The notes under the pieces: generated by a model
Databases searched by the model: none
What the model was told of the DNA's origin: nothing
Seen by the model: only the letters and a program-made list of their open reading frames with translations
Translations under genes and position numbers: made by a program
Virus record (IMG/VR): IMGVR_UViG_3300015615_000196
Span: 96,001 to 160,000 of that record
Length of the DNA stretch: 64,000 nt
Origin: a virus
Lineage: Duplodnaviria > Caudoviricetes
Reading direction: 5' to 3' (one strand)
In this document: in pieces, positions 1 through 61,345 of the stretch
Position numbering within the stretch: position 1 is the stretch's first letter
Layout of the letters: each line of letters begins with the position of its first letter

Positions 1-24
1 GATCACGCAACCTTTTCTCAGGGG

Positions 25-282
25 TTAATCGATTAAGATTAACTGTCTTTTCCGAAGCCTCGGCAAATCCATACGAAACCTATGTTCGTTGGCCTTGATC
101 TTGGCATCAGCTAATGTCATCGCCTTCACATAAAAATTCAGAACATCACTCTCCTTAGAGGTTAGTTCAACCATCCAATAATGGATGGGTTCTCGGTACA
201 CGACATGAGAGGGCTGAGGCAGTCTGACATCCAGACTCGGAATTACCCACCTCTTGTCGTCTTCTCTACTTGCGTAGTTCAT
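25..282 (-). CDS. hypothetical protein
   Basis: 85-aa ORF with upstream GGAG and a TAATTTCG -7-like element near 340; no recognisable motif. Confidence 0.55.
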   Translation of the reverse strand: MNYASREDDKRWVIPSLDVRLPQPSHVVYREPIHYWMVELTSKESDVLNFYVKAMTLADAKIKANEHRFRMDLPRLRKRQLILID

Positions 283-388
283 ACTCCATAATTGCTACCA
301 AGACAAGCAATTAGGAGGTGTTTTGATTTTTAATCATACACGAAATTAAGAATAAAATTATTCAAACCAAAATGTCAAAGAACTATCG

Positions 389-462
389 TCATCCGTAGGG
401 GAATCGAACCCCTATTTACGCAGTGAAAGTGCGTTGTCCTTATTCCGTTAGACGAACGGACG
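389..462 (-). tRNA. tRNA-Glu(TTC)
   Basis: Cloverleaf on minus strand: acceptor CGTCCGT/ACGGATG, anticodon arm ACGCA-CTTTCAC-TGCGT, T-arm AGGGG-TTCGATT-CCCCT. Confidence 0.93.
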
Positions 463-472
463 ATAATTTCTG

Positions 473-545
473 TAGCACGTAGGGGAATCGAACCCCTGTT
501 CCCACATTGAAAGTGTGGTGTCCTTGACCGTTAGACGAACGTGCC
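473..545 (-). tRNA. tRNA-Glu(TTC)
   Basis: Acceptor GGCACGT/ACGTGCT, anticodon arm CCACA-CTTTCAA-TGTGG, canonical T-arm. Confidence 0.95.
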
Positions 546-558
546 ATATATTTTAAAG

Positions 559-644
559 TACCTATGGTGGGACTCGAACCCACACGCCCATTACTGAGCA
601 CCAGATTTTAAGTCTGGCGTGTCTACCAATTCCACCACAAAGGC
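559..644 (-). tRNA. tRNA-Leu(TAA)
   Basis: D-arm GTGGAATTGGTAGACAC, anticodon arm CCAGA-CTTAAAA-TCTGG, long variable arm, T-loop TTCGAGT. Confidence 0.95.
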
Positions 645-677
645 ATGTTGCCTGTTGTGATGTCACATAATCGACAC

Positions 678-863
678 TTATTTTTTGTTGCTTCTGTCAT
701 ACTGTTCCAATTTATGTTTTGCTTCATTGATCAATGTTGTTTGATGCGCAACGTTTATTTCTTTTTGATTTGAACTTTTCTTCGTCAATGCATCCGTCAA
801 TTCTTGTTCGAGAGTTGCAACTCTCTCGACTAACTTCTCTCTTTTTTTATCAATTTTTCCCAT
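678..863 (-). CDS. small coiled-coil hypothetical protein within tRNA operon
   Basis: 61-aa ATG ORF co-oriented with the tRNAs, fills inter-tRNA gap. Confidence 0.6.
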   Translation of the reverse strand: MGKIDKKREKLVERVATLEQELTDALTKKSSNQKEINVAHQTTLINEAKHKLEQYDRSNKK

Positions 864-864
864 T

Positions 865-1020
865 TAATTTTTCTTTTATATCAGCTATCATTTCTTCGAC
901 ATCGAAATCCTCAATCAAGTCCATTTGATCGTAGCCTTCTTTTGAGGTGTACACCACAAAGTCTCCGGCTTTAATCAAACAACCTTCTTCGGTCACTATG
1001 TCTCCGAACAGTTTACTCAT
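865..1020 (-). CDS. small acidic hypothetical protein (51 aa, MSKLFGDIVTEEG...)
   Basis: Read manually: ATG at 1020 directly after tRNA-Ala, TAA at 865-867 abutting next ORF. Confidence 0.5.
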
Positions 1021-1021
1021 G

Positions 1022-1093
1022 TGGAGGTATAGGGAATCGAACCCTAATTTCCTGATTGCAAGTCAGGCGTAATCGCCCTTATACGATACCCCC
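1022..1093 (-). tRNA. tRNA-Ala(TGC)
   Basis: Acceptor GGGGGTA/TACCTCC with G3:U70 alanine identity pair, anticodon arm CCTGA-CTTGCAA-TCAGG. Confidence 0.95.
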
Positions 1094-1423
1094 ATACTTC
1101 TTTCTTCTAATCGAGTCATCCAACTCTTTCAAGAAAGATTCTGGTAATTCTATCTTCCTCTGCTCGAACTCATTCAAAATTTCTTGCTTTGAAAAAAGTC
1201 CTTCGCCAATTCCACTACTCCATTCTTTCACCCACAAACCCCAACCTTTTTTTGAAGTGATTACTCCCTTCACAATGTTTGGGTGTCTTGTCTTCATCGT
1301 CTCTCTGAATTTGAAAACTCCGTTTTCGTAATCATTGAAACAACTCTTCCCATCTACTCCGTTCACATCCAATTCCACATTCACACTCGAACCACAGAAT
1401 GTAATTATTCCTGTTCGATACAT
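1079..1423 (-). CDS. hypothetical protein
   Basis: 114-aa ORF co-oriented with the operon; stop codon lies inside the 5' end of tRNA-Ala. Confidence 0.6.
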   Translation of the reverse strand: MYRTGIITFCGSSVNVELDVNGVDGKSCFNDYENGVFKFRETMKTRHPNIVKGVITSKKGWGLWVKEWSSGIGEGLFSKQEILNEFEQRKIELPESFLKELDDSIRRKKYGGIV

Positions 1424-1520
1424 TCTCAGAAACAGTTCAAACTTTTTGTTGAACTTTTCGGAGAACGGTCTTTTGCGTCCATGCGGTAATTAGTCTTCAT
1501 AACTTAACCCTCATTTTATG

Positions 1521-1602
1521 TAGCCCAAGTAGGAGTCGAACCTACACGCCTTTCGGCACTCGCTTTTGAGACGAGCACGTCTACCAATTCCATCATTGGG
1601 CC
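1521..1602 (-). tRNA. tRNA-Leu(CAA)
   Basis: Acceptor GGCCCAA/TTGGGCT, anticodon arm CTCGT-CTCAAAA-GCGAG, variable arm GCC-GAAA-GGC. Confidence 0.95.
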
Positions 1603-1607
1603 ATATG

Positions 1608-1679
1608 CGGTCTATGCGAGAATCGAACTCGCAGCACCACCGTGACAGGGTGGGATGTTAGCCATTACACCAATAGACC
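1608..1679 (-). tRNA. tRNA-Asp(GTC)
   Basis: Acceptor GGTCTAT/ATAGACC, discriminator G, anticodon arm CCACC-CTGTCAC-GGTGG. Confidence 0.95.
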
Positions 1680-1739
1680 GTAGTAGTATCACTTATATAG
1701 ACGCTTCTCTTTTGAAGAACGATACTGTGCGCCATTGTG

Positions 1740-1811
1740 CAGTCCCTACGGGAATCGAACCCGCTTCTCCGGGGTGACAACCCGGCATACATACCAACGT
1801 ACCCAAGGACT
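1740..1811 (-). tRNA. tRNA-Asp(GTC), atypical D-arm (G8, G14)
   Basis: Acceptor AGTCCTT/AGGGACT, discriminator G, anticodon arm CCGGG-TTGTCAC-CCCGG, T-arm GCGGG-TTCGATT-CCCGT. Confidence 0.85.
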
Positions 1812-1826
1812 ATATTGTATTCGTTT

Positions 1827-1984
1827 TACCCCCGGCAGGACTCGAACCTGCAATCCCTTACATTTCTTCTTGCTGTGTATTGGGATGTCCGGTTACGGTT
1901 CGTGAGCAAGAGCATTGGGGCAGTCAACCTTTCAGCAATCCTATTGAACTTGGCCAGATGTGTATACCAATTCCACCACAGGGC
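1827..1984 (-). ncRNA. 158-nt tRNA-Leu-like RNA with expanded anticodon and variable domains
   Basis: Leu-type D-arm GTGGAATTGGTATACAC and T-arm GCAGG-TTCGAGT-CCTGC flank about 110 nt with no canonical 7-nt anticodon loop. Confidence 0.7.
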
Positions 1985-1992
1985 GAATACAA

Positions 1993-2061
1993 ATTGAAAC
2001 TGTTGATGACGGTCAACACTAAGCCCCTCAATGCCTCTATGAGGACTGAGCACATTTCAAT
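1993..2061 (-). ncRNA. putative small three-way-junction RNA
   Basis: Closing helix ATTGAAAT/GTTTCAAT enclosing hairpins AGTCCTCA/TGAGGGGCT and TGTTGA/TCAACA; strand assumed from operon. Confidence 0.35.
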
Positions 2062-2067
2062 GTCATT

Positions 2068-2154
2068 GTAACAGCACCGGATGCATTAGACCACTATACG
2101 ACCTACCCCGAAGGGCAGGGTGGGATTCGAACCCACGTCCTCCGGTGCTACTAC
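2068..2154 (-). ncRNA. circularly permuted tRNA-like RNA (YrlA/bacterial Y RNA-like)
   Basis: 5'->3' order: 14-bp terminal stem strand, T-arm GTGGG-TTCGAAT-CCCAC, acceptor-like stem CCTGCCC-TTCG-GGGTAGG closed by a loop, D-arm GTAT-AGTGGTCTA-ATGC, terminal stem partner. Confidence 0.8.
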
Positions 2155-2172
2155 TTCAATATTTCAAAGAAC

Positions 2173-2451
2173 TTACTTGCCTTCTGCAAGCAGTTGGTCA
2201 ATGTAACCCATCGGACTTGTACCCGGAGGTAGCATTACGATGTTCTTGAACCCATTCTCTTTGGTGATGATTGATTCACTTTCATGAATCGCTCCTTTAT
2301 GTTTCTCACCGTAAGTTCCGGTCATGAGTTTCTTCGAAGCAGGATCAACATCACCCCATTCTGCATGGTGCGAAGAACTATTGTCGATAGGTTCAACGCA
2401 GAAGGTTCTACCTTCTTTTGTCGTCACATAAAATCTTCCAGTTTTACTCAT
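2173..2451 (-). CDS. hypothetical protein, first gene after the minus-strand attenuator
   Basis: 92-aa ATG ORF with natural composition. Confidence 0.75.
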   Translation of the reverse strand: MSKTGRFYVTTKEGRTFCVEPIDNSSSHHAEWGDVDPASKKLMTGTYGEKHKGAIHESESIITKENGFKNIVMLPPGTSPMGYIDQLLAEGK

Positions 2452-2476
2452 AACTCACTCATTTAAAAAACCTTAT

Positions 2477-2509
2477 AAAACAAAAAACCCGACTTTGTGG
2501 GTCGGGTCT
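2477..2509 (-). terminator. intrinsic terminator (attenuator) of the Leu/Ala/Glu/Asp tRNA operon
   Basis: AGACCCGAC-CCACAAA-GTCGGGTTT followed by TTTGTTTT on minus strand. Confidence 0.88.
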
Positions 2510-2526
2510 TTCGAGTTTGATATTCT

Positions 2527-2646
2527 TTAGTATCCAATATCTTCATCTTCCTCTTTAGACCCAACAATAGCGTCATCCTCCACCATAGCCAACGCTACGA
2601 CAGATTCCATCGCTAAAGTTTCTAAAGATAATATTGAAGTTTTCAT
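2527..2646 (-). CDS. putative attenuator leader peptide MKTSILSLETLAMESVVALAMVEDDAIVGSKEEDEDIGY (39 aa)
   Basis: Translated manually; lies between promoter and terminator; 18/39 residues are L/A/E/D, all four Leu codons are TTA/TTG; GTTGGGTCT (2557-2565) is complementary to the terminator 5' arm. Confidence 0.78.
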   Translation of the reverse strand: MKTSILSLETLAMESVVALAMVEDDAIVGSKEEDEDIGY

Positions 2647-2679
2647 TTTCTGCTTTTTTTGAGTTTAATGTCTCTGACT

Positions 2680-2723
2680 CATAAATACGATACAAAGGTA
2701 TAAAAGGTTGCGTTCCCTCCAAA
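2680..2723 (-). promoter_or_regulatory. composite promoter of minus tRNA operon
   Basis: TTTG-N19-TACCTTTG (Bacteroidota primary sigma consensus) overlapping GCAAC-N17-CGTAT and GTATTTAT. Confidence 0.7.
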
Positions 2724-2741
2724 CTTTTTTTCAAATATTTT

Positions 2742-3353
2742 TTAGAAACAGACTTCAAGTTTTTTCAATTCGGTCACAAGATTATTGTAATCGGACTCCA
2801 CGTAACAGTATTCATTGGAGATTTGCTGCATATATTCCTTGCTTGCTCGTGAGTCACTAAGCACAAAAATCCCACAAATTGCTACCCCAAACAACTTTAT
2901 TTGTCGTGCAGCTTCCAGTGTGTCTTCTTCACGATCCGGGTCACCATCGGAGACCAAGACAATTATTCTATGTGCATCAATTCTCCCTCTCCCCAACAAT
3001 TCTTCACCTGCAACTACTACTGCGTCCGTCATATTTGTAGTACCACTTGCACCACCTTTTAAAGATGAAAGTGCCATGTAAACAGTATCTCTATCAGAAG
3101 TTAATCCGGTCATCAAATATGCTTTGTCACTAAAACGAACAACGCCCAATCGTACTCCGTTGTCGTCCAGATCGAATCGATCAACAAAAGTTTTTAGGGC
3201 GTTGTAAATAAATGACTCACTACCGTGAACACTTGTTGACATATCGGCAACAAGCATGATGTCTGCTTTCAAGCATCCACTTGGTTTTCTCGGTGTATCT
3301 GCTGTTTGAAATGACAGAAACACCAGAAACAATATGGATATGAATTTATCCAT
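2742..3353 (-). CDS. vWA-domain protein with N-terminal signal-like segment
   Basis: MIDAS DMSTS, GVVRFS, GTTNMTDAV, IVLVSDG motifs. Confidence 0.85.
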   Translation of the reverse strand: MDKFISILFLVFLSFQTADTPRKPSGCLKADIMLVADMSTSVHGSESFIYNALKTFVDRFDLDDNGVRLGVVRFSDKAYLMTGLTSDRDTVYMALSSLKGGASGTTNMTDAVVVAGEELLGRGRIDAHRIIVLVSDGDPDREEDTLEAARQIKLFGVAICGIFVLSDSRASKEYMQQISNEYCYVESDYNNLVTELKKLEVCF

Positions 3354-3765
3354 CTGCCTTCATTCTCTCGACATGCTTTAAGTAATTCTCAATATAACTT
3401 TCCATGTTCAATTTACCAACAGGGTTCATTGAATGAACGTACCACTGAGGAAAATCTTTCTTGTGATCAATGCAATAATCTACCAACCACTTCACACAGT
3501 CCATACCAGTTTTTTCAGAAATGGTTTCCAAATATTTCATGTAGACCTTACCGTCTTGGTACATTGATTCGTGATAATGTGCCTCTGCAAGATCGTGGTC
3601 AAAAGAAACAACTTCCGGCAAACCGTTCTCCATAACCATCTGAACAAAGTGGTTATAATTGCGCATAGTCTGCCATTCAAGATTCAAATAAATCTCGTTA
3701 CGTGTGTACGCATAGGCTTGTTCTGGATGACGAATGTCGTCCAAAAATAAATTGTACTTTGGCAT
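3346..3765 (-). CDS. cyclic-phosphate-processing receiver-like domain protein
   Basis: LFLDDIR, VSFDHDL, TGMDCVKWL, VHSMNPVG motifs typical of this family. Confidence 0.8.
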   Translation of the reverse strand: MPKYNLFLDDIRHPEQAYAYTRNEIYLNLEWQTMRNYNHFVQMVMENGLPEVVSFDHDLAEAHYHESMYQDGKVYMKYLETISEKTGMDCVKWLVDYCIDHKKDFPQWYVHSMNPVGKLNMESYIENYLKHVERMKADG

Positions 3766-3771
3766 AATGCC

Positions 3772-4272
3772 TTAAAGATACGGACTAATAATGGATTTTA
3801 CAAGTTGATTTCGGAGTTCCGGTGTAAGCCAAGTAAGGCTTATTTCACTACCATCATCATCGAAAAGTGCAAGGTCAAGCATACGACCCAAATTCTTGTA
3901 GTCAATTGATGCTTCTGGATGTTCTGCTGGTTGCCAGTGTGTAGCTGATCTGTATGATCCTCTCCAATCAACATCGACATCACCATTGATAAACATTGTC
4001 AATGGTACGTCTACTCCTTTGTAGTTGTAAACAAAATCAAAATCATAGTCAACATGGAATCTGTCGTCATCGGTATCACGTAGGTCTTCCATTGATCCGT
4101 GTTGGTCACGAATCGTCCAACTTTTTACATTCTTTTTGTTGTTAATCAAGTCATTCACTAAATTGACTTGAAAGTCTTTCGACTTGAGTACCTCGTCTTT
4201 TGACGGGTTTTCGGAACCGTCTACAATCTCTGCTAAACTCGCTGAACGCTTGCTGTATAGTTCGTTGACCAT
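3772..4272 (-). CDS. hypothetical protein (late-promoter motif upstream)
   Basis: 166-aa ORF; GTATTTATA on coding strand at 4290-4298. Confidence 0.75.
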   Translation of the reverse strand: MVNELYSKRSASLAEIVDGSENPSKDEVLKSKDFQVNLVNDLINNKKNVKSWTIRDQHGSMEDLRDTDDDRFHVDYDFDFVYNYKGVDVPLTMFINGDVDVDWRGSYRSATHWQPAEHPEASIDYKNLGRMLDLALFDDDGSEISLTWLTPELRNQLVKSIISPYL

Positions 4273-4334
4273 TATGAAAGTGATTTCTTTATAAATACGA
4301 AGTTTTTCTCGTATTTATGGTTAAAGCTGCCGTT

Positions 4335-5126
4335 ATGCAAAAAAGAACTTTACAGGATATGTTCGAGAAGGTCAATGGTATCAAATTAACCGAAGGTTGG
4401 TTTGGTCAGGGTAATAAAACCCCGGCTCCAATGCAAGGCACTCAACTCAAAACAGCACCTGTTTTCAATTACCAACAGAAATATCAGGAGGTAATGAAAG
4501 GTTTGAACAAGATGGCAAAGCAATACATCCGTTATTTCGTTGCCGATGTAACTGGTGACAATCACGTCTGGTCAAACGATTTTGATTCGTGGATCGCCAT
4601 TGCAGTAAAGAAGGTTCTTGCAAATCCTGCTCAGTTTGCCCAAATTCTACACAAATACCCTCAAGTGGAAGATGCAGTAAAGATGGTTACCGCAGCCGAT
4701 CAAGTTAATCCCCCTGCCGTTGCCGAAAACGTAGAAGGTACTCCTGCTACTAAAGAACATGCATTGGGTTATCTCTCCGACCTTTACAAAGATGTCTACG
4801 GTACAAGACCAAACTTGAGCAGATATAGAAGTATGTCCGATGCTGAGGTATGGCAAGAAATTCAGAACCTTGAGAAACAAGCTGGTGAAGAAGCAGATCA
4901 GGAAGCAGTGTACGATCAACAAAATCTTGCTAAGTTTGAAGCACTGATTCAGAAGACTATTGAACACGGTGCTGGTGATAGAGAAACAGCATTACGTTGG
5001 TTGTACGATTCAGATGATGACCAGTATGATGCATCATACTTCTTGTATAAGCACCACGTCAACACTCATTCACCGGAGGGCAGAAAACTCCAACAGGAAT
5101 TGGATAACGCCATCCTGAAAAAATAA
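4335..5126 (+). CDS. hypothetical protein, possible internal head protein
   Basis: Long ORF (alternative start 4317); GTATTTAT at 4311; N-terminal FEKVNGIKLTE and C-terminal SDLYKDVYGTRP...GAGDRETALRWL segments. Confidence 0.75.
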   Translation: MQKRTLQDMFEKVNGIKLTEGWFGQGNKTPAPMQGTQLKTAPVFNYQQKYQEVMKGLNKMAKQYIRYFVADVTGDNHVWSNDFDSWIAIAVKKVLANPAQFAQILHKYPQVEDAVKMVTAADQVNPPAVAENVEGTPATKEHALGYLSDLYKDVYGTRPNLSRYRSMSDAEVWQEIQNLEKQAGEEADQEAVYDQQNLAKFEALIQKTIEHGAGDRETALRWLYDSDDDQYDASYFLYKHHVNTHSPEGRKLQQELDNAILKK

Positions 5127-5138
5127 TTGAAATTTTCG

Positions 5139-5180
5139 TAACCTTTATTTGGAGATTACGTATTTAAGGATATATCTTTG
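5139..5180 (+). promoter_or_regulatory. composite promoter of plus tRNA operon
   Basis: TTTG(5148)-N21-TATCTTTG(5173-5180) overlapping GTAAC-N16-CGTATTTA. Confidence 0.72.
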
Positions 5181-5213
5181 TGACACAAAAGCAGAGAGAA
5201 AAGTAAAAAGACA

Positions 5214-5297
5214 ATGAAAAAGATCGTAAACGTAGTTCCGCAACCCCAACATCAGCCACAAAACCTGTTGCTTGGGGATACTATGATCGTATCTTAA
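5214..5297 (+). CDS. putative attenuator leader peptide MKKIVNVVPQPQHQPQNLLLGDTMIVS (27 aa)
   Basis: Translated manually; run CCG CAA CCC CAA CAT CAG CCA CAA matches downstream Pro/Gln/His tRNAs; alternative 1:2, 2:3 and 3:4 pairings present. Confidence 0.88.
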   Translation: MKKIVNVVPQPQHQPQNLLLGDTMIVS

Positions 5298-5317
5298 CTG
5301 TCGAAAAAGACATTTAG

Positions 5318-5355
5318 AAAACCCCCAAGCGTAAAGTTTGGGGGTTTTTTGTTTT
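5318..5355 (+). terminator. intrinsic terminator (attenuator) of the Pro/His/Gln tRNA operon
   Basis: AAAACCCCCAAGC-GTAAA-GTTTGGGGGTTTT followed by TTGTTTT, 4 nt before first tRNA. Confidence 0.92.
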
Positions 5356-5359
5356 CTAT

Positions 5360-5434
5360 CGGGATGCGATCCATTAGGTGTGGTTACGTGTTTTGGAAAC
5401 ATGGTTATTGCTGGTTCGAGTCCAGTCATCCCGA
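5360..5434 (+). tRNA. tRNA-Pro(TGG), atypical D-arm, A37
   Basis: Acceptor CGGGATG/CATCCCG-A, anticodon arm CGTGT-TTTGGAA-ACATG, T-arm GCTGG-TTCGAGT-CCAGT. Confidence 0.85.
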
Positions 5435-5495
5435 CCCGATGTAGACCGTTCGCACTGCAAAGACTGGTTCGCCAGATGCGTAGAAGTGCAAGTAT

Positions 5496-5569
5496 CGAGA
5501 GTGTGGTGTAATTGGATAAACACACTACAATCGGAATGTAGAGTTACGGTTCGAGTCCGGCACTCTCGA
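5496..5569 (+). tRNA. tRNA-Pro(CGG), apparent 8-bp acceptor and short T-stem
   Basis: CGAGAGTG/CACTCTCG-A, D-stem GTGT/ACAC, anticodon arm CTACA-ATCGGAA-TGTAG. Confidence 0.8.
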
Positions 5570-5618
5570 CAATTTTTCTTTAAAAGTATTTATTGGAAAC
5601 ATTAAACAAGTTTCCGAT

Positions 5619-5966
5619 ATGACAAGAGAAGAAAAACAGGTATACGATAGACGATGGTATGCTGAAAACAAAGACAGGTTAAAAGCCGAAAAAAACAAAA
5701 GAGGACGTGAAACACGGAGAAGAAACAGTAATTATATTACTGAATATTTGAAAAAACATCCTTGTGTTGATTGTGGTGAAAATGATCCAATCGTATTAGA
5801 ATTCGATCACATCGCAAAGAAAACAAAGAGTATTTCAGATATGATTCGTGGTGCATTTTCTCTTGAGACGATTAAAAATGAAATCAAAAAATGCGAAGTT
5901 AGATGTGCTAATTGTCATCGAAAGAAAACAGCAAAGCAATTTAACTGGCATCGTAACAGAGTGTAG
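5619..5966 (+). CDS. HNH endonuclease
   Basis: CVDCGE..IVLEFDH..CEVRCANCHRKKT zinc-finger HNH signature. Confidence 0.88.
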   Translation: MTREEKQVYDRRWYAENKDRLKAEKNKRGRETRRRNSNYITEYLKKHPCVDCGENDPIVLEFDHIAKKTKSISDMIRGAFSLETIKNEIKKCEVRCANCHRKKTAKQFNWHRNRV

Positions 5967-6029
5967 TTCAGTTGGTAGAACGCTACATTTGGGATGTAGA
6001 GGCCGAGAGTTCGAGTCCCTCCACTCTGA
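5957..6029 (+). tRNA. tRNA-Pro(TGG)
   Basis: Acceptor CAGAGTG/CACTCTG-A, anticodon arm CTACA-TTTGGGA-TGTAG. Confidence 0.95.
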
Positions 6030-6031
6030 CT

Positions 6032-6289
6032 ATGAAGTTCTTTGATGTAGTAGAAATTGGTGATAGTGTAATGGATGGAAAAGTTGTTGAGACAATAACG
6101 AACAAAACATCCAACTCTATCGAAGTTACCAGAACGGCTCGTTCGAAAAATGGTGTGGATTGTAAACAGTGGTTTACGATGAAAGATTTTGAAGATTCTT
6201 TTAAACCTTTAAATCAAACACACTATGAACAAGAAAGAGTTAAAATGGAAAACGGAAATCTTGGAAAGAATTCCGAAGATGACCAATGA
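6032..6289 (+). CDS. hypothetical protein
   Basis: ATG directly after tRNA-Pro, 85 aa. Confidence 0.55.
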   Translation: MKFFDVVEIGDSVMDGKVVETITNKTSNSIEVTRTARSKNGVDCKQWFTMKDFEDSFKPLNQTHYEQERVKMENGNLGKNSEDDQ

Positions 6290-6452
6290 GGAAGTACTGG
6301 ATCAGTACTCGTATCTCTGCGGAGGTGATGACTACGATGGTTGCATGACTGATCGTGGACAATGGGAATTCGAAAAGATCACTGACGAATTGAGCAAACG
6401 CTTAATCGCCTGTGGATTTTTGAAGGAACACATTAATGCAGGAATGCATTAA
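6225..6452 (+). CDS. hypothetical protein
   Basis: 75-aa ORF (GGDDYDGCMT), ends before tRNA-His. Confidence 0.6.
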   Translation: MNKKELKWKTEILERIPKMTNEEVLDQYSYLCGGDDYDGCMTDRGQWEFEKITDELSKRLIACGFLKEHINAGMH

Positions 6453-6458
6453 TGAAAT

Positions 6459-6533
6459 GGGTTAGGTAGCATAATTGGTTAATGCCCTTGACTGTGGATC
6501 AAGTGTATGCGGGTTCGAGACCCGTCCTAACCC
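6459..6533 (+). tRNA. tRNA-His(GTG)
   Basis: G-1 and C73, acceptor GGTTAGG/CCTAACC, anticodon arm CTTGA-CTGTGGA-TCAAG. Confidence 0.95.
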
Positions 6534-6552
6534 CTTAACGTACTTTGAAATT

Positions 6553-6774
6553 ATGGCACACAAAAAAACAACCGTACCGAAAGTTGAAGCTAAAGTAGTT
6601 TCGCTTACGATCCTTTGTCCAACATTGAACAAAGAAGTTATCGTTACCAGTGATTATTCTTTTTCAGGATATGAAGCAGAATGTGAACTGTGTGGATCGC
6701 ACGGTGAAGTGAAGGTGTGTATAATGAAATGTGAATGCGGTAAGACGCATGACATTCAACTTAGTTCTTGGTAA
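6553..6774 (+). CDS. small Cys-rich putative zinc-binding protein
   Basis: CP, CELCGSHG, CECGKTH motifs; ATG at 6553. Confidence 0.65.
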   Translation: MAHKKTTVPKVEAKVVSLTILCPTLNKEVIVTSDYSFSGYEAECELCGSHGEVKVCIMKCECGKTHDIQLSSW

Positions 6775-6816
6775 CTAACTTAGTAACTAAGAAATATCGG
6801 ACATGTCCGATAAAAT

Positions 6817-6889
6817 TGTCCTCTGGTGTAATTGGCAACACGCCTGACTTTGAATCAGGAGAGTTCAGGTTCGACCCCTGAGAGGACAA
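6817..6889 (+). tRNA. tRNA-Gln(TTG)
   Basis: Acceptor TGTCCTC/GAGGACA, anticodon arm CCTGA-CTTTGAA-TCAGG. Confidence 0.95.
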
Positions 6890-6890
6890 C

Positions 6891-6962
6891 TGCCGAATAG
6901 TATAATGGCGATTATTTCTGGCTCTGAACCAGAGGATGTGAGTTCGATTCTCACTTCGGTAT
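6891..6962 (+). tRNA. tRNA-Gln(CTG)
   Basis: Acceptor TGCCGAA/TTCGGTA, anticodon arm TCTGG-CTCTGAA-CCAGA. Confidence 0.92.
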
Positions 6963-6968
6963 CTACAT

Positions 6969-7041
6969 GGTGTTTGTGTTGTAGTGGCTAACATACCAAA
7001 CTGTGAATTTGGAGAAGACGGATCGAAACCGTCCTTACACC
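6969..7041 (+). tRNA. tRNA-His(GTG), divergent
   Basis: Anticodon arm CCAAA-CTGTGAA-TTTGG; two U-U mismatches in acceptor; T-loop ATCGAAA. Confidence 0.75.
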
Positions 7042-7049
7042 CACTTGAT

Positions 7050-7122
7050 TGCTGAGTAGTATAATGGTTCATTACTGCCGCCTTTGAAGCGGAGGATGAA
7101 GGTTCGATTCCTTCCTCAGCGA
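7050..7122 (+). tRNA. tRNA-Gln(TTG)
   Basis: Acceptor TGCTGAG/CTCAGCG, anticodon arm CCGC-CTTTGAA-GCGG, T-arm GAAGG-TTCGATT-CCTTC. Confidence 0.9.
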
Positions 7123-7123
7123 C

Positions 7124-7321
7124 TTAAACCATCATTAGTTTTATCAAGTCATCTTTAGAGACTGGTACTACGATGGTCTTGAATGGGAGAAGCGGTAATC
7201 CAAATACCGTGATGTAACCTGTCTTCACAATATGAAAGTTTCTTTTGTATTCGTGAGTTTGAAGATTTACAGTTAACTCGTAATAGAAGCGAGTCACTCT
7301 TTTGATTCCAAAAATTTTCAT
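7124..7321 (-). CDS. hypothetical protein
   Basis: 65-aa ORF coupled to upstream gene (TAATG overlap). Confidence 0.55.
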   Translation of the reverse strand: MKIFGIKRVTRFYYELTVNLQTHEYKRNFHIVKTGYITVFGLPLLPFKTIVVPVSKDDLIKLMMV

Positions 7322-7812
7322 TAGTTGTGAATGATTAATTCTTTGTTCTTGTAATCGATGATCGCATCGTTGCTTCGTAAAAAGTCCGATCCCAAAACAC
7401 CAACTATTGGCATTCCATCTGCATCGAACGATTCAACCACAAGTTTCAAATTCGCTCCGAAAGGATAAACTTTCAACATGATACTGTCGTGCTCAAACTT
7501 ACAGTTGGCAACATTGTATCTGCTTGATAATCCACCTATCCCGGCCAATCGACTATCAGTCTCATTGAATGTAAATTTGTACTTGTCTGACTGATTGATG
7601 TCCAGCAGTGATGCAGCAGCACCAGTGTCAAGTAGAAGATTTGCATTGCGATTATTCAACTTTATCGGTACAAAGTATAAATACTTGTGATGAATCAATG
7701 CAATGGTTTTCGGTGTTTTGTCTTTAGAAATCGATTTCGAAGTTTTGAGTTGTTCTGGTCTGAATGATGCAAGTATTAGTAGGAGTGATATGAGGATCAC
7801 CATTCTTTTCAT
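7321..7812 (-). CDS. retropepsin-like aspartyl protease with signal-like N-terminus
   Basis: LLLDTGA catalytic motif and GVLGSDFL...IDY motif. Confidence 0.85.
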   Translation of the reverse strand: MKRMVILISLLLILASFRPEQLKTSKSISKDKTPKTIALIHHKYLYFVPIKLNNRNANLLLDTGAAASLLDINQSDKYKFTFNETDSRLAGIGGLSSRYNVANCKFEHDSIMLKVYPFGANLKLVVESFDADGMPIVGVLGSDFLRSNDAIIDYKNKELIIHN

Positions 7813-7833
7813 GACCGTTGTATGTTTATGAAC

Positions 7834-8187
7834 TCAAATTTTGTAAACTCTTAGTTTCAATTTATAAATACGGGCTACATCAATCATGTTCTCGGAACCT
7901 CTTGAATTATTTTTCCAGAACACTACGCAAGCATCTGCGTACCTACCCATTTCTCCGTTTCTGATTGGCCCCGCACTTCTACCGTGCTTATTCCAGTCAG
8001 CAGGAAAGTATTTCACTGCGTGACCTTTCTCAATTGCGTACTGCTCTCCCAACGTATCAGCACCTCTTGCTTTTCCGCAAACGATTTCAACTGGTTCAGT
8101 TACATTTTGTAACAGGTGATCCAACTTCTCACTGAGAAATTTATAGTCCAAAAAATCTCTACTTCCGGCAACAATTAATTTGAACAT
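7834..8187 (-). CDS. SLOG/YspA-like (DUF2493-type) protein
   Basis: IVAGSRDF, CGKARGADTLG, ADWNKHGRSAGPIRN motifs. Confidence 0.85.
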   Translation of the reverse strand: MFKLIVAGSRDFLDYKFLSEKLDHLLQNVTEPVEIVCGKARGADTLGEQYAIEKGHAVKYFPADWNKHGRSAGPIRNGEMGRYADACVVFWKNNSRGSENMIDVARIYKLKLRVYKI

Positions 8188-8226
8188 GCCACAGATTTGT
8201 GTAAACTTACTAAAGTATTTATTGAT

Positions 8227-8895
8227 ATGCAAACACCCTTGAGCGATTTTTGGTTAACGGCTGATCCAATAGATTTCGAACACAAAAAATATCTCATGCT
8301 TGCCTATCAGCAGAAAATGCTGCACGATCTTACTCGCAAAAAACTTTACCCAAATCTCACTGACATCGTTGACAGATTAGCCTACGTCAATGACTTCCTT
8401 CGTAATATGGTTGACTTGGAAAACTCAGCAGTCGCTATCGATCACATTGATTGGCTCAAGAAAGAAGTTATCTACAAAACAAAAATCACAGACGAAACAT
8501 TTGAAGAGGTTCGAGATATTGCAATCATGTCACGAGATATTCTTGCTGACTTGTACATCCGCTATAAAAACTTCTACGATGAAGTTGATGGCAGTATAGT
8601 AATAAGTGGTACGAAGTTCACAGTCTTCGACAAGTACGATGGGTATCTTCAAGTAAAATATGATATGGGAAAGAAGGAGAAGATAATGTACTACGACATC
8701 TATCGTGTTATGTTTCCTGAACCAACATTTCACCTTCACACTTCAAAAGCATCAATGAAACAATACTTCGGTGAACGATTCAAAAAGAATATTTTTGAAG
8801 TCATTATGAATGAAAATTACCCGGCAAAGGAGACTGCCATTCCGGTATTTAGACGTAAGTTCTTATTGTACATTATGGGCAACTACGTACTGTAG
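8227..8895 (+). CDS. hypothetical protein
   Basis: 222-aa ORF from ATG 8227; GTATTTAT upstream. Confidence 0.75.
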   Translation: MQTPLSDFWLTADPIDFEHKKYLMLAYQQKMLHDLTRKKLYPNLTDIVDRLAYVNDFLRNMVDLENSAVAIDHIDWLKKEVIYKTKITDETFEEVRDIAIMSRDILADLYIRYKNFYDEVDGSIVISGTKFTVFDKYDGYLQVKYDMGKKEKIMYYDIYRVMFPEPTFHLHTSKASMKQYFGERFKKNIFEVIMNENYPAKETAIPVFRRKFLLYIMGNYVL

Positions 8896-9108
8896 TTACC
8901 ACTTCCCTTTGAGACAGCGTTTCTTTTTTGATCTCACAGAAGTTGAGATCGGACAATTACAAATCCCACATCTTACAATCGGATGTTTCTTGTAGTGCAT
9001 ACAATTAACGCAAATTGCCAAACGCTTTTTTGCAAGTTCTTCGGAAGCAGCATTCGGAAAGATTAGATTCTTCCAACCATCCATTATCAACTTCATTTCT
9101 TCTATCAT
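8896..9108 (-). CDS. small Cys-rich protein
   Basis: RLAICVNC..RCGICNCP..K..CLKGKW pattern. Confidence 0.7.
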   Translation of the reverse strand: MIEEMKLIMDGWKNLIFPNAASEELAKKRLAICVNCMHYKKHPIVRCGICNCPISTSVRSKKKRCLKGKW

Positions 9109-53721: not shown

Positions 53722-54210
53722 ATGGCAGAATTACTCAGAGGTATCCCGGTTGACTTTGAACCTAAAAGAAAGAACCGATTCGTATTAGAGTTCCCTACTG
53801 AACTTGGGATCGAATCGTGGAAAGTCCAGACCGTTACCAGACCAAAGTTGGAAATCAACTCTGTTGAAGTTCATTGGATCAACACCGTGAACTATGTAGC
53901 AGGTAAAGGTAAGTGGCAACCAATCGACATCGAATTTATCGATACGCAAGGCCCATCTACTTCTACTGAATTGATGGAATGGGTTCGTCTTGAATTCGAA
54001 TCGTTGACTGGTCGTATGGGTTATGCAGCAGGATACAAGAAGACACTCATTTTGAAAGCACTTGACCCAACTGGTGTTGAAGTTGAAAAGTGGGAATTGA
54101 GAGAGTGTATGATCACCAACGTAGAGTTCGGTGAAAACTCACAAGAAGATGATGGATTGCAAACCGTAAAAATCACGGTACAACCATTCATGTGTATCCT
54201 CAACTACTAA
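53722..54210 (+). CDS. tail tube protein (gp19-like)
   Basis: EPKRKNRF, AGKGKW, EWV, GYAAGYKK, VEKWEL; follows sheath. Confidence 0.93.
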   Translation: MAELLRGIPVDFEPKRKNRFVLEFPTELGIESWKVQTVTRPKLEINSVEVHWINTVNYVAGKGKWQPIDIEFIDTQGPSTSTELMEWVRLEFESLTGRMGYAAGYKKTLILKALDPTGVEVEKWELRECMITNVEFGENSQEDDGLQTVKITVQPFMCILNY

Positions 54211-54245
54211 TAGCCTTTTTTACCTTAGAAGGATTAGTTATAGAC

Positions 54246-54280
54246 AAAAAAAGACCGCTTCGCTGGCGGTCTTTTTTATT
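54246..54280. terminator. bidirectional intrinsic terminator
   Basis: AAAAAAGACCGC-TTCGCTG-GCGGTCTTTTTT. Confidence 0.85.
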
Positions 54281-54295
54281 TACGGTAGGTTTCGA

Positions 54296-54535
54296 TTAAG
54301 CCATTGTGTACTTAACGACCTTCGTGCCTTTCTGGTTCACGATGTTCGTCTTGATGTTGGTGTAGCCGTCATTCAAGCGAAGATCAGAAATTGTCGCTCT
54401 CAAGTTTTCAACTCCGAAACGAGTTCTTGCAGTTTCGTAAGTGAGCGTCTTACCAGCTTTCAAAGCACTCAATACTTGAGCCTTCTTTGCGGTCTTCGTT
54501 TTACCCGTGTTCTTTGTCGTCTTAGTTTTTGACAT
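54296..54535 (-). CDS. small basic helix-turn-helix-like DNA-binding protein
   Basis: VLSALKAGKTLT..ARTRFGVENLRATISDLR..GY. Confidence 0.65.
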   Translation of the reverse strand: MSKTKTTKNTGKTKTAKKAQVLSALKAGKTLTYETARTRFGVENLRATISDLRLNDGYTNIKTNIVNQKGTKVVKYTMA

Positions 54536-54599
54536 AGTAGTAAATGTTAAAATGAAGTTATGAACTGTAAATATAAGGCTAAAATCTGGAATTCCAAAT

Positions 54600-55331
54600 T
54601 TATCGCTCTAATTGTTCTTGAGAATATACCGTTAATTTTGACCAGTCGGCATCAAAAATTTCATCAGCCAGACCAAAGTCAACGGCCTCTTTTGCAGTAA
54701 GATATACGTCCTCTTCTTTGTCCATACGATTACGGAGCCACTTCTTTATTTGAATCTGGCTCTTGTCTTTCATACTTCCACCGAATTTCATTGATCGGGC
54801 GTAGATGTCCAACATGGTTTTTTCAGCCAGTTTATCAAACTTGACGGCTGATCGTACTTGCTTTACCGTACCCTCAATGCCCATTGTCCCGTCATGGAAC
54901 AGGAAGTAACTATTGGGCATCATTACCCTCTTATTCCCTGCTTGAAAGATCAACGATGACATTGATCGTGCATGGCTGTAGTTGAGGATGGTTACAGGCC
55001 AAGGGAATGATCGAATAGCATCATAGATCGCCATACCTTCCGTCCAATCTCCCCCACATGTTTTCATATGGATCACCAATGGTATCTCAGGATTCACACG
55101 CATACAAACGTTTAGGTTTCTGATGAATCGGTTTGCCATTACAAACTCCACACCCGGTTCATTTGTTTCTTGATGACCTACTCCTGTTATGTACGACTCA
55201 ATACCGAAAAGGTAAATATGATTCGATTTTAAATCAAGGTCGCCCTCCAAAACGTAGTAGAGAGGATCGTCCTGTTTAAACTTCAACTTATGGTCTAACT
55301 TATAGTTTTTTTCTTCTTTGCTTCTTCCCAT
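54600..55331 (-). CDS. ClpP-like protease
   Basis: GGDWTEGMAIYD, ARSMSSLI (Ser), LFHDG (His), DVYLTAKEAVDFGLAD. Confidence 0.88.
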   Translation of the reverse strand: MGRSKEEKNYKLDHKLKFKQDDPLYYVLEGDLDLKSNHIYLFGIESYITGVGHQETNEPGVEFVMANRFIRNLNVCMRVNPEIPLVIHMKTCGGDWTEGMAIYDAIRSFPWPVTILNYSHARSMSSLIFQAGNKRVMMPNSYFLFHDGTMGIEGTVKQVRSAVKFDKLAEKTMLDIYARSMKFGGSMKDKSQIQIKKWLRNRMDKEEDVYLTAKEAVDFGLADEIFDADWSKLTVYSQEQLER

Positions 55332-55332
55332 G

Positions 55333-56163
55333 TTAAAATGCTCTTGACATAATCATGTTAACTTCGTTGCTGTAGTCATCACATGGAATAATCTGGTAGT
55401 TCTCGTTAACCTCATTGAACCACACGATGTAGCAACCATCGATTTTAATTCCTATATTCCGCTCAAGAATTCTTTTGTATGTCGTTAACTGTAAGCAGTA
55501 GATACTGTATTCACAGTCCGGCAAGTGGGATACGATCCCTTTCAAATTCTTTCGGAACTTGCTTTCCTTATTGAGTTCCTTGTTCGTCTTCCAATCCCAT
55601 ACTTGAAAACATTGCTTCTTCACATTCCAGAAAAGAATGTCCATCATCCCTGCCAATTCCCACTCTTCATCGAAGACAACGAATTCAGTTTTGATCGGAA
55701 TCAGTTTTCCGTTTGTGTCAGCGTGAAACTTGTCAACGTATTTTATTACGATGTCGTATTCCTCTTTCACAGTTTTCTCGCCACGAGATTTCAGAATGTC
55801 AATGTTTTCCTTCCCTAACTTTGCATCGGCAAGTTCCGGGTCAAACTTGTACACTTTGTTGTTGAACAGTAGTTCAGCGTAATTGTGCACGGCTGATCCC
55901 TTTACTTGGGACTTAATGTTGAGGGCTTTCCAATACGCAAGAACTTGATCCTGCGTCATCTTCAATTCACCTTTCTTGATGTTCGACCAATAGTATTCAT
56001 CGAATTCTTCTTGGTACTTATGTAACATCGTAGTCACCGAAATTAAGTTCTTGTCGCCCACAAAGTATTTGTGAACATCATCATGAAACTTGATTCCGTT
56101 GAACTTAGTAAATAATTCCATCGGGATTGGAACACCAGTCCAATCACTTCGCAATTCACCCAT
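55333..56163 (-). CDS. PD-(D/E)xK exonuclease
   Basis: HKY, ISVTT, GSAVH, AGMMD, DWKT, YCLQLTTY. Confidence 0.85.
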   Translation of the reverse strand: MGELRSDWTGVPIPMELFTKFNGIKFHDDVHKYFVGDKNLISVTTMLHKYQEEFDEYYWSNIKKGELKMTQDQVLAYWKALNIKSQVKGSAVHNYAELLFNNKVYKFDPELADAKLGKENIDILKSRGEKTVKEEYDIVIKYVDKFHADTNGKLIPIKTEFVVFDEEWELAGMMDILFWNVKKQCFQVWDWKTNKELNKESKFRKNLKGIVSHLPDCEYSIYCLQLTTYKRILERNIGIKIDGCYIVWFNEVNENYQIIPCDDYSNEVNMIMSRAF

Positions 56164-56175
56164 TTAGCAAATATA

Positions 56176-57078
56176 TTAATTAATCCTGATATTTGGCTGC
56201 AAAATCTTCGAAAAATCAATGTTTTGTAACTGATTGATTATACCTGACTTATCTGCCGGAAGACCAGAATATCCGTGTATGTGTTGGAGAATGGCATCAC
56301 GTATAACCTCAAGGGCTTCTACTGCAAGGTCGCCACGCATCATTGGGTGACCCTCGTTAAAAATACGATCCATGTCCGTTTTCTCTAACCCATTTGACTT
56401 GAACTTAGGGATACCGTCATGTGATAGTAACGCAATCTTATCAGCCATCATCACGGATGTGCTTAGTGTTGTTTTTGTATTGTTGTTGTTTGGTAGCTGG
56501 AAAAAATTCATTTGGAGGAACGCAGGATTCTCTTTGTTCAATGCCAAAATGTTGTCGATTTGGTGTTTACCAGCACGGATTAACACCTCTTTATCTTTTA
56601 ATAAAACGTCCGTGTTCTTTCTCCCTACAAGGGCAATGTCTTCGTTGTCCGGGAATACTCCGATAGCGTCCGGGATAGAAGACGGGTTCTTGTCAGGATT
56701 GACAACAGAAACGTTTGTAGTTGCTAATGCTGTGAAGTAACCATCGTAAGGAATTTTGTGTGGTTGTGAGATTACACTTCCAATCCAATGTCTTCCTCTT
56801 TGAGGGTAGCGAGTATCTTCAAGGAAAATACGAACAACCTCTCCTACCTGTGGAAGTATCCAAAAATGCTTTGGAAGCATCGGCATTGCCAATGGAAGTT
56901 GGGCATCGTTTGTTTTAGTATCCAAGTCAGGAATACGTGCTGCAATACGACCACCTTCGGCAGTATCGACAATACTAACCACCTCACCGTAGTAGACGTT
57001 TCTAACCGGATTCTCTTTGTTAGTTTGCTTCTTGTACGGGTTACTGGTCTGAATGTAATGTTTGTCGTAGCCGTTCAT
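56176..57078 (-). CDS. baseplate spike/hub protein with gp5-like OB domain
   Basis: GEVVSIVD..GRIAARIP..PQVGEVV..HWIG. Confidence 0.75.
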   Translation of the reverse strand: MNGYDKHYIQTSNPYKKQTNKENPVRNVYYGEVVSIVDTAEGGRIAARIPDLDTKTNDAQLPLAMPMLPKHFWILPQVGEVVRIFLEDTRYPQRGRHWIGSVISQPHKIPYDGYFTALATTNVSVVNPDKNPSSIPDAIGVFPDNEDIALVGRKNTDVLLKDKEVLIRAGKHQIDNILALNKENPAFLQMNFFQLPNNNNTKTTLSTSVMMADKIALLSHDGIPKFKSNGLEKTDMDRIFNEGHPMMRGDLAVEALEVIRDAILQHIHGYSGLPADKSGIINQLQNIDFSKILQPNIRIN

Positions 57079-57278
57079 TAGTCAATGATGTTTTTTAGGT
57101 TCGCAGCGTATTGCTCTTCAATGTTATAAAGTTCTTGTTCAAGAGTATTGTATTGCTCTTCAAGTATCTTGTTTGCTTCAACGATCTTGAGCATTTCATT
57201 CTTTACTTGTTCGTGACGATCCTGCAACGACTTTGAAATCTTGAGATATTCTTCTTTGCTTACTTTTACTTCTTCCAT
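57078..57278 (-). CDS. small coiled-coil protein
   Basis: 66 aa, coupled to next gene. Confidence 0.65.
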   Translation of the reverse strand: MEEVKVSKEEYLKISKSLQDRHEQVKNEMLKIVEANKILEEQYNTLEQELYNIEEQYAANLKNIID

Positions 57279-57280
57279 AG

Positions 57281-57688
57281 TTACTGAATTACACCGTAGG
57301 CGGTCGTTAATGTGATGGTTGAACCAATAACGTTTACTGGCCCCGAAGGTGAAGAACCAGCAGCCGTAAGGGTTGTACCCGGTGGTACGGCAACAGTGAT
57401 CTTTGCATCTTCTTGAAGTGCTTTGATTATCTCTTCAACACGGATACGCTCCATAAGTTCATCTGGACTCACTCCACCGCTCGGCAATGCACCAACAGGA
57501 AGACCAGCTTCGGTCTTACGCTGAATAATACGGCTTGCAATCTTGGTAGGTGATAGTCCTGATCTGGTCGGTGAACCAATCAAAATCAAAGGTGTAGGCA
57601 CGGTCGTAGCCGACCCACCTTGAATCTTCAAGATTTTCTTGATACCGTTGAGTATAGATGTGAACTTACTAAAGTCGATTTCTGCCAT
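57281..57688 (-). CDS. hypothetical protein (baseplate-gene neighbourhood)
   Basis: 135 aa, GLSPTKIASRII. Confidence 0.7.
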   Translation of the reverse strand: MAEIDFSKFTSILNGIKKILKIQGGSATTVPTPLILIGSPTRSGLSPTKIASRIIQRKTEAGLPVGALPSGGVSPDELMERIRVEEIIKALQEDAKITVAVPPGTTLTAAGSSPSGPVNVIGSTITLTTAYGVIQ

Positions 57689-57694
57689 ACTCTT

Positions 57695-58999: not shown

Positions 59000-59151
59000 T
59001 TTGTTGTGACTATTTTAGTATTAAAATATTAGCGAGAGTTATAATATGTGCGACAATTGCACATTATTAACCAAGGTCATAACCTCACCTTTGCGTTTCA
59101 TCCCATAGCGGGAGTGTTTAACACAACTAACACTTAACTTTTTTAATGTTA

Positions 59152-59544
59152 TTATATCTGTATTTCACCACGTTCTCTGGCTTCCTGAATCAATTGTCTC
59201 AACTTATCTTTCGAATCGTCTGACAATGTTTCGGTTGCATCTGCTGTTTTAGATGATGATGTTTTACCTTGTCCACTGGCTCCTTTATCCTTAAAGACAA
59301 TATCACTCAACACTTTCATTAACGTAATTTTCTGGTCTTGGTTTCTTGCAAGAGCATTGATAAGTGCAACGATCTCTTTACCAGTAGCTGCGATTTCACC
59401 TTGTTCCTTTACCTTCGAATTCCAGTTGTTGAACAATGCAATGATCGTTGATCTGATTTGATGTGCATCATTGTATGTCTCCTGCATTAAAGACTTAACG
59501 CTTTCTTCGTTGATTTCAATCTGTTTTCTCTTAATACGTGCCAT
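59152..59544 (-). CDS. hypothetical helical protein
   Basis: ATG at 59544 downstream of CTATTTAT motif. Confidence 0.7.
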   Translation of the reverse strand: MARIKRKQIEINEESVKSLMQETYNDAHQIRSTIIALFNNWNSKVKEQGEIAATGKEIVALINALARNQDQKITLMKVLSDIVFKDKGASGQGKTSSSKTADATETLSDDSKDKLRQLIQEARERGEIQI

Positions 59545-59580
59545 ATTCTTAGTTTTGCTAATAAATAGTTCAGGCAAGAA

Positions 59581-60474: not shown

Positions 60475-60498
60475 ATCATAAACACAGAGAAGATCAGA

Positions 60499-61320: not shown

Positions 61321-61345
61321 TTTCTTATTTAAGTTTTAGGTTGAA

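Follow-up and report, generated by a model that had tools for sequence, protein, structure and literature searches.

A 362,603-bp phage genome with direct terminal repeats (Duplodnaviria; Caudoviricetes; IMG/VR record IMGVR_UViG_3300015615_000196) carries a short leader in front of one of its tRNA operons, and this leader is likely to be a ribosome-mediated (leader-peptide) transcription attenuator in the style of trp and ilv, with codons matched to the tRNA genes that it would gate. It lies on the minus strand near the start of the stretch of DNA analysed here, bases 96001-160000 of the record (64,000 nucleotides (nt), called the window; coordinates are those of the window unless genome positions are named). 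The anatomy of the element, its conservation, the complementarity of its RNA segments with compensatory changes, and the co-variation of its codons with the anticodons encoded downstream are all read directly from the sequences. An original prediction, made from the letters of the window, had proposed an attenuator at this place. The host of the phage is probably a member of the Bacteroidota.

The genome has 61 tRNA genes as called by ARAGORN, and 57 of the 61 fall into four blocks that are sorted by amino acid:

Genome 53816-61542, minus strand: block 1, with Trp, Phe, Thr, Arg, Ile, Ser, Asn, Gly, Leu(UAG, AAG) and Cys; leader peptide MKSLMSNISRINWCGSTITGGISTLNFRGSNSHIGSFDLNTI
Genome 80858-82876, minus strand: block 2, with Tyr and Lys; leader peptide MKKSYSYKTYKKSFSRQGKSM
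Genome 94576-97811, minus strand: block 3, the block behind the leader at 2646-2527, with two Asp, Leu(CAA), Ala, Leu(UAA), two Glu, three Met and three Val, 13 tRNA genes in all
Genome 101359-103123, plus strand: block 4, with Pro, His and Gln; leader peptide MKKIVNVVPQPQHQPQNLLLGDTMIVS
Window 388-1811, minus strand: the tRNA genes of block 3 inside the window, Asp, Asp, Leu(CAA), Ala(UGC), Leu(UAA), Glu and Glu, with small open reading frames (ORFs) between them

Block 3 extends past window position 1, and its six final genes, the three tRNA-Met and three tRNA-Val, lie there; the operon is therefore wider than the Asp, Leu, Ala and Glu with which it was originally credited. This also bears on an early caveat, that the Val and Ser codons of the leader had no matching tRNA. 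The Val codons, like those for Met, are explained by the tRNA-Val and tRNA-Met genes of this array, and the caveat stands for Ser, which no block-3 tRNA reads.

The same three elements precede every one of the four blocks: a conserved promoter block, an ORF that begins with MK, and a hairpin rich in GC with its U-tract. It had been predicted that each tRNA cluster would have its own codon-matched leader, and this was borne out for the four blocks of the genome and for the homologous clusters of its relatives. The leader of block 3 is built as follows:

2682-2722, minus strand: promoter region, sigma-A-like TTG-N19-TACCTTTG overlapping a phage-wide motif
2527-2646, minus strand: leader ORF, 39 codons plus stop, with an ATG start about 40 nt past the promoter; reads MKTSILSLETLAMESVVALAMVEDDAIVGSKEEDEDIGY
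2618-2628, minus strand: region 1, UCUUUAGAAAC, the predicted anti-antiterminator, which pairs with region 2 in the full-length fold
2572-2616, minus strand: putative sensing window, codons 11-25, LAMESVVALAMVEDD, 14 of whose 15 codons are read by block-3 tRNAs
2579-2604, minus strand: apical hairpin of a protector rod, over codons 15-23, in the predicted fold
2557-2565, minus strand: region 2, GUUGGGUCU, 5' strand of the antiterminator
2501-2512, minus strand: region 3, AAAGACCCGAC, 5' arm of the terminator, common to the antiterminator
2482-2493, minus strand: region 4, GUCGGG and a U6 tract, the 3' arm of the terminator and its T-run

The ORF, the terminator and a TTTG-N19-TACCTTTG promoter are all found where the original prediction had put them. 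As for the leader codons, a recount agreed with the earlier one: Leu is written three times as TTA and once as TTG, Ala occurs four times, Glu six times and Asp four times, and there is no codon for Pro, His or Gln. The amino acids of block 3 are specified by 24 of 38 leader codons, against 35% expected (binomial P 4.5e-4), and under strict wobble rules 22 of the 38 are matched to the block (P 1.8e-4). An equal richness in D/L/A/E/M/V is reached by only 2 of the 998 ATG-initiated ORFs of 30-50 codons in the whole genome. When the four leaders are set against the four blocks, significance appears on the diagonal only (37/41, 9/20, 24/38 and 8/26 codons for blocks 1-4, with P 1.5e-7, 2.7e-4, 4.5e-4 and 1.3e-3), and all the off-diagonal cells are at or below expectation.

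The same arrangement is found in other phages. A scan of viral contigs with the promoter motif described below gave at least three related records (326 kb, 178 kb and a 58-kb fragment), which have the same four kinds of block with matched leaders, and a stricter promoter pattern gave dozens of further units in viral and metagenome contigs and zero matches in 185,579 prokaryote genomes, and hence no link to a host or prophage. Among GenBank phages, a megablast search with window positions 1-8000 returned a single tRNA-sized match and nothing else. Altogether, 22 non-redundant homologues of the block-3 leader were collected, the closest being those of contigs L252 (MKTSILSLETLAMESSVVALAMVEDDRTVGSNDIIRS) and L262. 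All of them precede Asp/Glu/Val/Leu/Ala/Met(/Trp) tRNAs, and the homologous ORF is open in all 22 of these divergent relatives. Their peptide sequence drifts, while the amino-acid composition, the RNA pairing and the choice among synonymous codons are kept. Smaller phages with one mixed tRNA array also have a leader and a terminator, and there the residues of the leader mirror the array.

How closely do the codons follow the tRNAs? In leaders before blocks that hold only tRNA-Leu(UAA/CAA), UUR codons prevail by 35:3, and in leaders before blocks that hold only tRNA-Leu(UAG/AAG), CUN codons prevail by 18:12 (Fisher P 4e-6); the comparison includes leaders of the block-3 type (L267, L269, L273), and the genome-wide share of UUR among Leu codons is 47%. 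Tryptophan behaves in a similar manner. Its tRNA is the first gene of block 1, and leader 1 has a Trp codon while the block-3 leader has none; in ten relatives, tRNA-Trp lies inside the block-3-type array and the leader of that array has Trp. The block-1-type leaders of the relatives are mostly without it, the exceptions being L251 and L268, where Trp is the last codon only.

The second line of evidence is the RNA. The terminator hairpin (2513-2481) has 13 pairs, in a stem of 12-13 bp, with a 7-nt loop and a T-run of six U. Its 5' arm can pair instead with the leader ORF: GUUGGGUCU (2565-2557) and AGACCCGAC (2509-2501) form a 9-bp antiterminator duplex of -14.6 kcal/mol, compared with -8.7 for dinucleotide shuffles (P 0.01), and the inner helices of the antiterminator are present once the RNA is folded without the 3' arm of the terminator. 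These two results agree with the antiterminator that had been drawn between 2557-2565 and the terminator 5' arm. A second proposal fared less well, namely an upstream hairpin GTAGCGTT/GACGCTAT over some of the leader codons; it is rejected as the main structure there, being absent from the predicted fold, which has UCUGUCGUAGC/GCUAUGGUGGA and UAGCG/CGCUA. The leader RNA of 165 nt folds at -50.4 kcal/mol (z -4.2), and its alternative elements have energies of -32.9 (protector rod), -18.8 (antiterminator) and -15.3 kcal/mol (terminator).

These pairings recur among the 22 units. In 20 of 22, the strongest pairing of the terminator 5' arm with the leader is better than in dinucleotide shuffles (P<0.05), with a median z of -3.7, and the position of the antiterminator complement is constant, 6-36 nt before the end of the stop codon. 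In a MAFFT alignment of the 22 units, the seven-pair core of the antiterminator is 93.9% paired, compared with 23-56% when one strand is slid against the other, and the terminator is 98.1% paired. Compensatory pairs flank the invariant GGG/CCC: U-A nine times and C-G five times at one position, G-C 15 times, A-U three times and G-U once at a second, and C-G 16 times, U-G three times and U-A once at a third, where the change in L252 is matched in the terminator. The motif GUCGGGU is kept both where GGG is a Gly codon (phase 0, 18 units) and where it straddles Arg-Val (phase 1, four units), which points to a constraint on the RNA and not on a Gly codon.

In folding predictions of RNA that ends before region 4, regions 2 and 3 are paired in 21 of 22 units; at full length, the fold contains the 1:2 and 3:4 pairings in 17 of 22. 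A 1:2 anti-antiterminator that overlaps the translated region is thus predicted in the block-3 leader and in 17 of 22 relatives. The effect of a stalled ribosome was modelled on the RNA that exists before region 4 is made, with a footprint masking -15 to +11 nt around the A-site codon. Under this mask, 82-100% of the leaders form the 2:3 pairing as long as the A site is at offset -4 or earlier, counted from the region-2 GGG codon; between -3 and +5 none does. The composition of the leaders changes at the same place. From offset -18 to -4, the family profile is 82-100% L/V/A/D/E/M/W, whereas the flanking stretches have 24-42%; because the footprint limit is the same (-4), the boundary in composition coincides with the point where a stalled ribosome would start to cover region 2. 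Downstream of the antiterminator strand, the EEDED run of the block-3 leader is probably not regulatory, because it is outside the conserved sensing window and absent from the closest relatives, L252 and L262.

The promoter region of the leader has two overlapping candidates. On the minus strand, a Bacteroidota sigma-A-like TTTG-N19-TACCTTTG is present at 2723-2693 (TTG from 2722), and it is overlapped by the phage-wide motif AACCTTTT-N13-CGTATTTA at 2709-2682. In the form AACCTTT-N12-13-CGTA this motif aligns across all four leaders and has 34 copies in the genome, compared with about two expected by our own arithmetic. A strong terminator follows within 330 nt in 4 of the 34 copies, and these four are the ones that precede the tRNA blocks. 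Transcription of block 3 may start from either candidate, the sigma-A-like promoter or the AACCTTT-N12-13-CGTA motif. In its AAC / CGTA appearance the latter resembles promoters of extracytoplasmic-function (ECF) sigma factors, and the phage encodes two sigma factors of ECF size outside the window (genome 9579-10073, minus strand, and 254276-254746, plus strand). Inside the window, examples of the motif are seen at 2709-2686 (minus strand) and 5140-5162 (plus strand). From the leader to past the last tRNA-Val, no further promoter motif and no further terminator-like hairpin were recognized on the minus strand, so that the array looks like one unit. Two findings named at the outset as fatal to the attenuator, a promoter downstream of the terminator and relatives without matched leaders, were looked for; the array has no other recognizable promoter, and the relatives carry matched leaders.

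From these observations, a mechanism can be proposed. The transcript would begin about 40 nt before the ATG of the leader. If the leader is empty of ribosomes, or once its translation is complete, the RNA would fold into the long protector rod, in which region 1 (2628-2618) sequesters region 2 (2565-2557); regions 3 and 4 would then pair, and the U-tract terminator (2512-2482) would halt RNA polymerase. We infer that the ORF is translated, so that a ribosome could stall within codons 11-25, all but one of which are for Leu(UUR), Ala, Met, Glu, Val or Asp. Such a ribosome would keep the rod open and leave region 2 free to capture region 3 as it emerges; no terminator would form, and the polymerase would continue into the 92-codon ORF described below, a Y-RNA-like RNA and the 13 tRNA genes of block 3. 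If read-through depends on stalling in this direction, the block would be made when the decoding of its own codons is slow, and the tRNAs of block 3 are probably made when ribosomes slow down on matching codons.

The other three blocks would be governed likewise, each by its own leader. This leads to a wider idea, that the four leaders jointly act as a codon-resolved sensor of decoding capacity and that the phage switches on exactly the block whose codons have slowed; we regard it as possible, but lean against it. The slowing might come from host anticodon nucleases or other tRNA-depleting defences, from host shut-off, or from the codon demand of the phage itself, and the sorting of the tRNA genes by amino acid would exist to permit a selective response.

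Several points weigh against codon-specific attenuation. The covariation in the core helix is modest, with four double-change cells, a number that 17 of 500 shuffles also attained; the high conservation of the core accounts for this. In an equilibrium stall map of the complete transcript, the terminator is favoured almost everywhere, even with a stalled ribosome, so that the switch must be kinetic, like that of trp. By its footprint alone, a ribosome that has reached the stop codon leaves region 2 uncovered in 18 of 22 leaders, and termination in the replete state would therefore need a ribosome in the 2:3 loop or the re-formation of the rod. The Asp codons 24-25 are at the extreme edge of the sensing window, and the block-3 leader has Ser, Thr, Ile, Lys, Gly and Tyr codons without a tRNA in their own block. 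Among the relatives, L267 has Trp in its leader and no tRNA-Trp among the 14 downstream tRNAs seen, and G002 has a Tyr-Tyr-Met-Leu mini-cluster (L204:2300-2900, plus strand) directly after a Bacteroidota-type promoter, with no leader or terminator. Many of the relatives, moreover, are short and phylogenetically related contigs, and the counts given above are not independent events.

Could the element be a real switch that does not read particular codons? It might sense translation capacity in general, or be operated by an RNA-binding protein or a tRNA in the manner of TRAP or the T-box. The structure alone does not specify the trigger, equilibrium modelling cannot show switching that depends on stalling, and the sigma factors of the phage suggest that dedicated regulators may exist as well. 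We nevertheless think this unlikely, since the codons track the downstream tRNAs down to synonymous Leu codons and the rare Trp, since the matched codons stay within limits set by the ribosome footprint, and since the leader matches neither the T-box nor any other Rfam leader family. In the Rfam searches, the T-box model gave no match in window positions 1-9000 at E up to 1, and over 2482-2700 no leader family matched at the same threshold. The only Rfam leader match is a weak one to His_leader (RF00514) at 5246-5354 on the plus strand, in the Pro/His/Gln leader (33.7 bits, E 0.018, with a gathering score of 49).

A more ordinary account is that the ORF encodes a small acidic protein or is open by chance, that the hairpin ends the operon upstream, and that the tRNAs are transcribed independently. 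The upstream genes are indeed on the same strand:

2742-3765, minus strand: genes for a VWA-domain protein (secreted-looking) and a cREC_REC protein (E 2e-22), just upstream of the leader

Phage tRNA arrays often contain small ORFs, too, and the codon enrichment of the block-3 leader is moderate (the P of 4.5e-4 given above). The conserved promoter, however, is placed between the VWA gene and the ORF, and the array contains no alternative one. The genes upstream vary between relatives whereas the leader unit travels with the tRNA block, which argues that the unit belongs to the block and not to the preceding operon; in addition, the peptide of the ORF drifts while its composition, its RNA pairing and its synonymous codons persist. 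This account is therefore very improbable.

Equally hard to sustain is the idea that the attenuator mainly controls the small ORFs and the Y-RNA-like gene, with the tRNAs as passengers processed from any transcript. It draws on what stands between terminator and tRNAs:

2173-2451, minus strand: ORF of 92 codons that follows the terminator directly and opens the gated unit, with no family match
2053-2163, minus strand: Y-RNA-like (YrlA) tRNA-like element (Rfam RF02553, 29.7 bits, E 2.6e-4, below the gathering score of 69)

An ORF and not a tRNA follows the terminator here and in the closest relative, L252, where the spacing from promoter to first tRNA is similar, and a 47-codon ORF does so in G001; but an ORF and a Y-RNA-like element at this place set block 3 apart from most relatives and from the other three blocks of the genome, which have a tRNA within tens of bases after the terminator, and across the family these ORFs are not kept, nor does any of them have a family match.

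Leader-peptide attenuation is a textbook mechanism, familiar from amino-acid biosynthesis and a few synthetase genes; in function, the phage leader comes closest to the multivalent leaders of enterobacterial amino-acid operons and to the pheM attenuator. The ilvGMEDA leader has Leu, Val and Ile codons and the thr leader Thr and Ile codons, and trpL, hisL and leuL are of the same class. Like these, the phage leader places a short ORF, with a start codon and presumably translated, between promoter and genes; its regulatory codons are for several amino acids and are linked to the function of the genes downstream; and its 1:2, 2:3 and 3:4 pairings are mutually exclusive, the first of them by folding prediction, with an intrinsic U-tract terminator before the regulated genes. 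It differs from them in that it regulates tRNAs rather than biosynthetic enzymes, so that the loop would feed back on decoding capacity itself. Further differences are that a single phage has four units dividing the amino acids, that the promoter class is phage-specific, that the host is probably from the Bacteroidota, and that no sequence or Rfam family relationship joins the phage leader to the bacterial ones. In E. coli, the pheM leader attenuator controls pheST (phenylalanyl-tRNA synthetase), and it shares with the phage leader the attenuation of a component of the translation apparatus; it is bacterial, senses one amino acid, and has a synthetase rather than tRNA genes as its target. The T-box (RF00230) likewise switches between terminator and antiterminator according to the state of a specific tRNA, but it binds the uncharged tRNA through a specifier codon without translation, whereas the phage leader has an in-frame ORF with a window of many codons. 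Finally, the arrays of T4-like and jumbo phages resemble block 3 in their clustered tRNA genes with small ORFs between.

In full-text searches of the literature, no description was found of tRNA genes under leader-peptide attenuation, and no report of tRNA genes grouped by amino acid with a matched leader and a terminator before every group. Here the same attenuation logic seems to be applied to the tRNA genes of a virus, and four times over, with the genetic code shared out among the copies. If the proposal is true, it describes a natural feedback loop on decoding capacity and offers a reason why these phages sort their tRNA genes by amino acid. The long-standing question of why large phages carry tRNAs would become directly testable, by asking which shortage opens which block. 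The units would also be compact sensors, programmable by codon, and might serve elsewhere to report how available a tRNA is.

Some minor observations complete the picture. The cREC_REC protein has a cyclic-phosphate-processing receiver domain, which is suggestive of RNA-repair signalling beside the tRNA blocks. Relatives of the VWA neighbour were absent from the viral contigs searched; a neighbour of 269 amino acids has distant relatives only (about 30% identity over one domain), and homologous leaders were not reached through them. Within the array, the four small ORFs had no Pfam or PHROGs match. A segment of about 165 nt at 1826-1990 on the minus strand combines a perfect T-arm (GCAGGTTCGAGTCCTGC) with a 5' part that resembles a D-arm. 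No tRNA was called in it by Rfam or by ARAGORN with introns allowed, and the segment may be a tRNA-like RNA or else a tRNA that contains a long insertion.

In a contig from a sibling sample that is nearly identical to G001 (L216:7603-7805, minus strand), 35 nt are deleted inside the homologous leader, which leaves an ORF of 12 codons and no sensing window; either natural variation or faulty assembly may explain the loss. The single mixed arrays with leader and terminator are on another kind of contig, at most about 107 kb long (L208, L209, L213, L222 and L227). An example of their leaders is MKNLNTFNRTEPTPANDGLGNLCLCSDLK, before Pro, Asn, Gly, Asp, Thr and Ala, and inside L209 a second leader, MRTTMVHISSFKQQEICSWYRHGQNCGSELDLG, precedes Val, Glu, Phe, His, Ser, Ile, Lys, Cys, Trp, Tyr, Gln and Arg. 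Far from the four blocks of the present genome, and outside the window, is a tRNA with the anticodon CUA, of the amber suppressor type (genome 299220-299292, minus strand). An odd tRNA with a short anticodon loop (genome 298550-298621) and a lone tRNA-Leu(UAA) are likewise far from the blocks.

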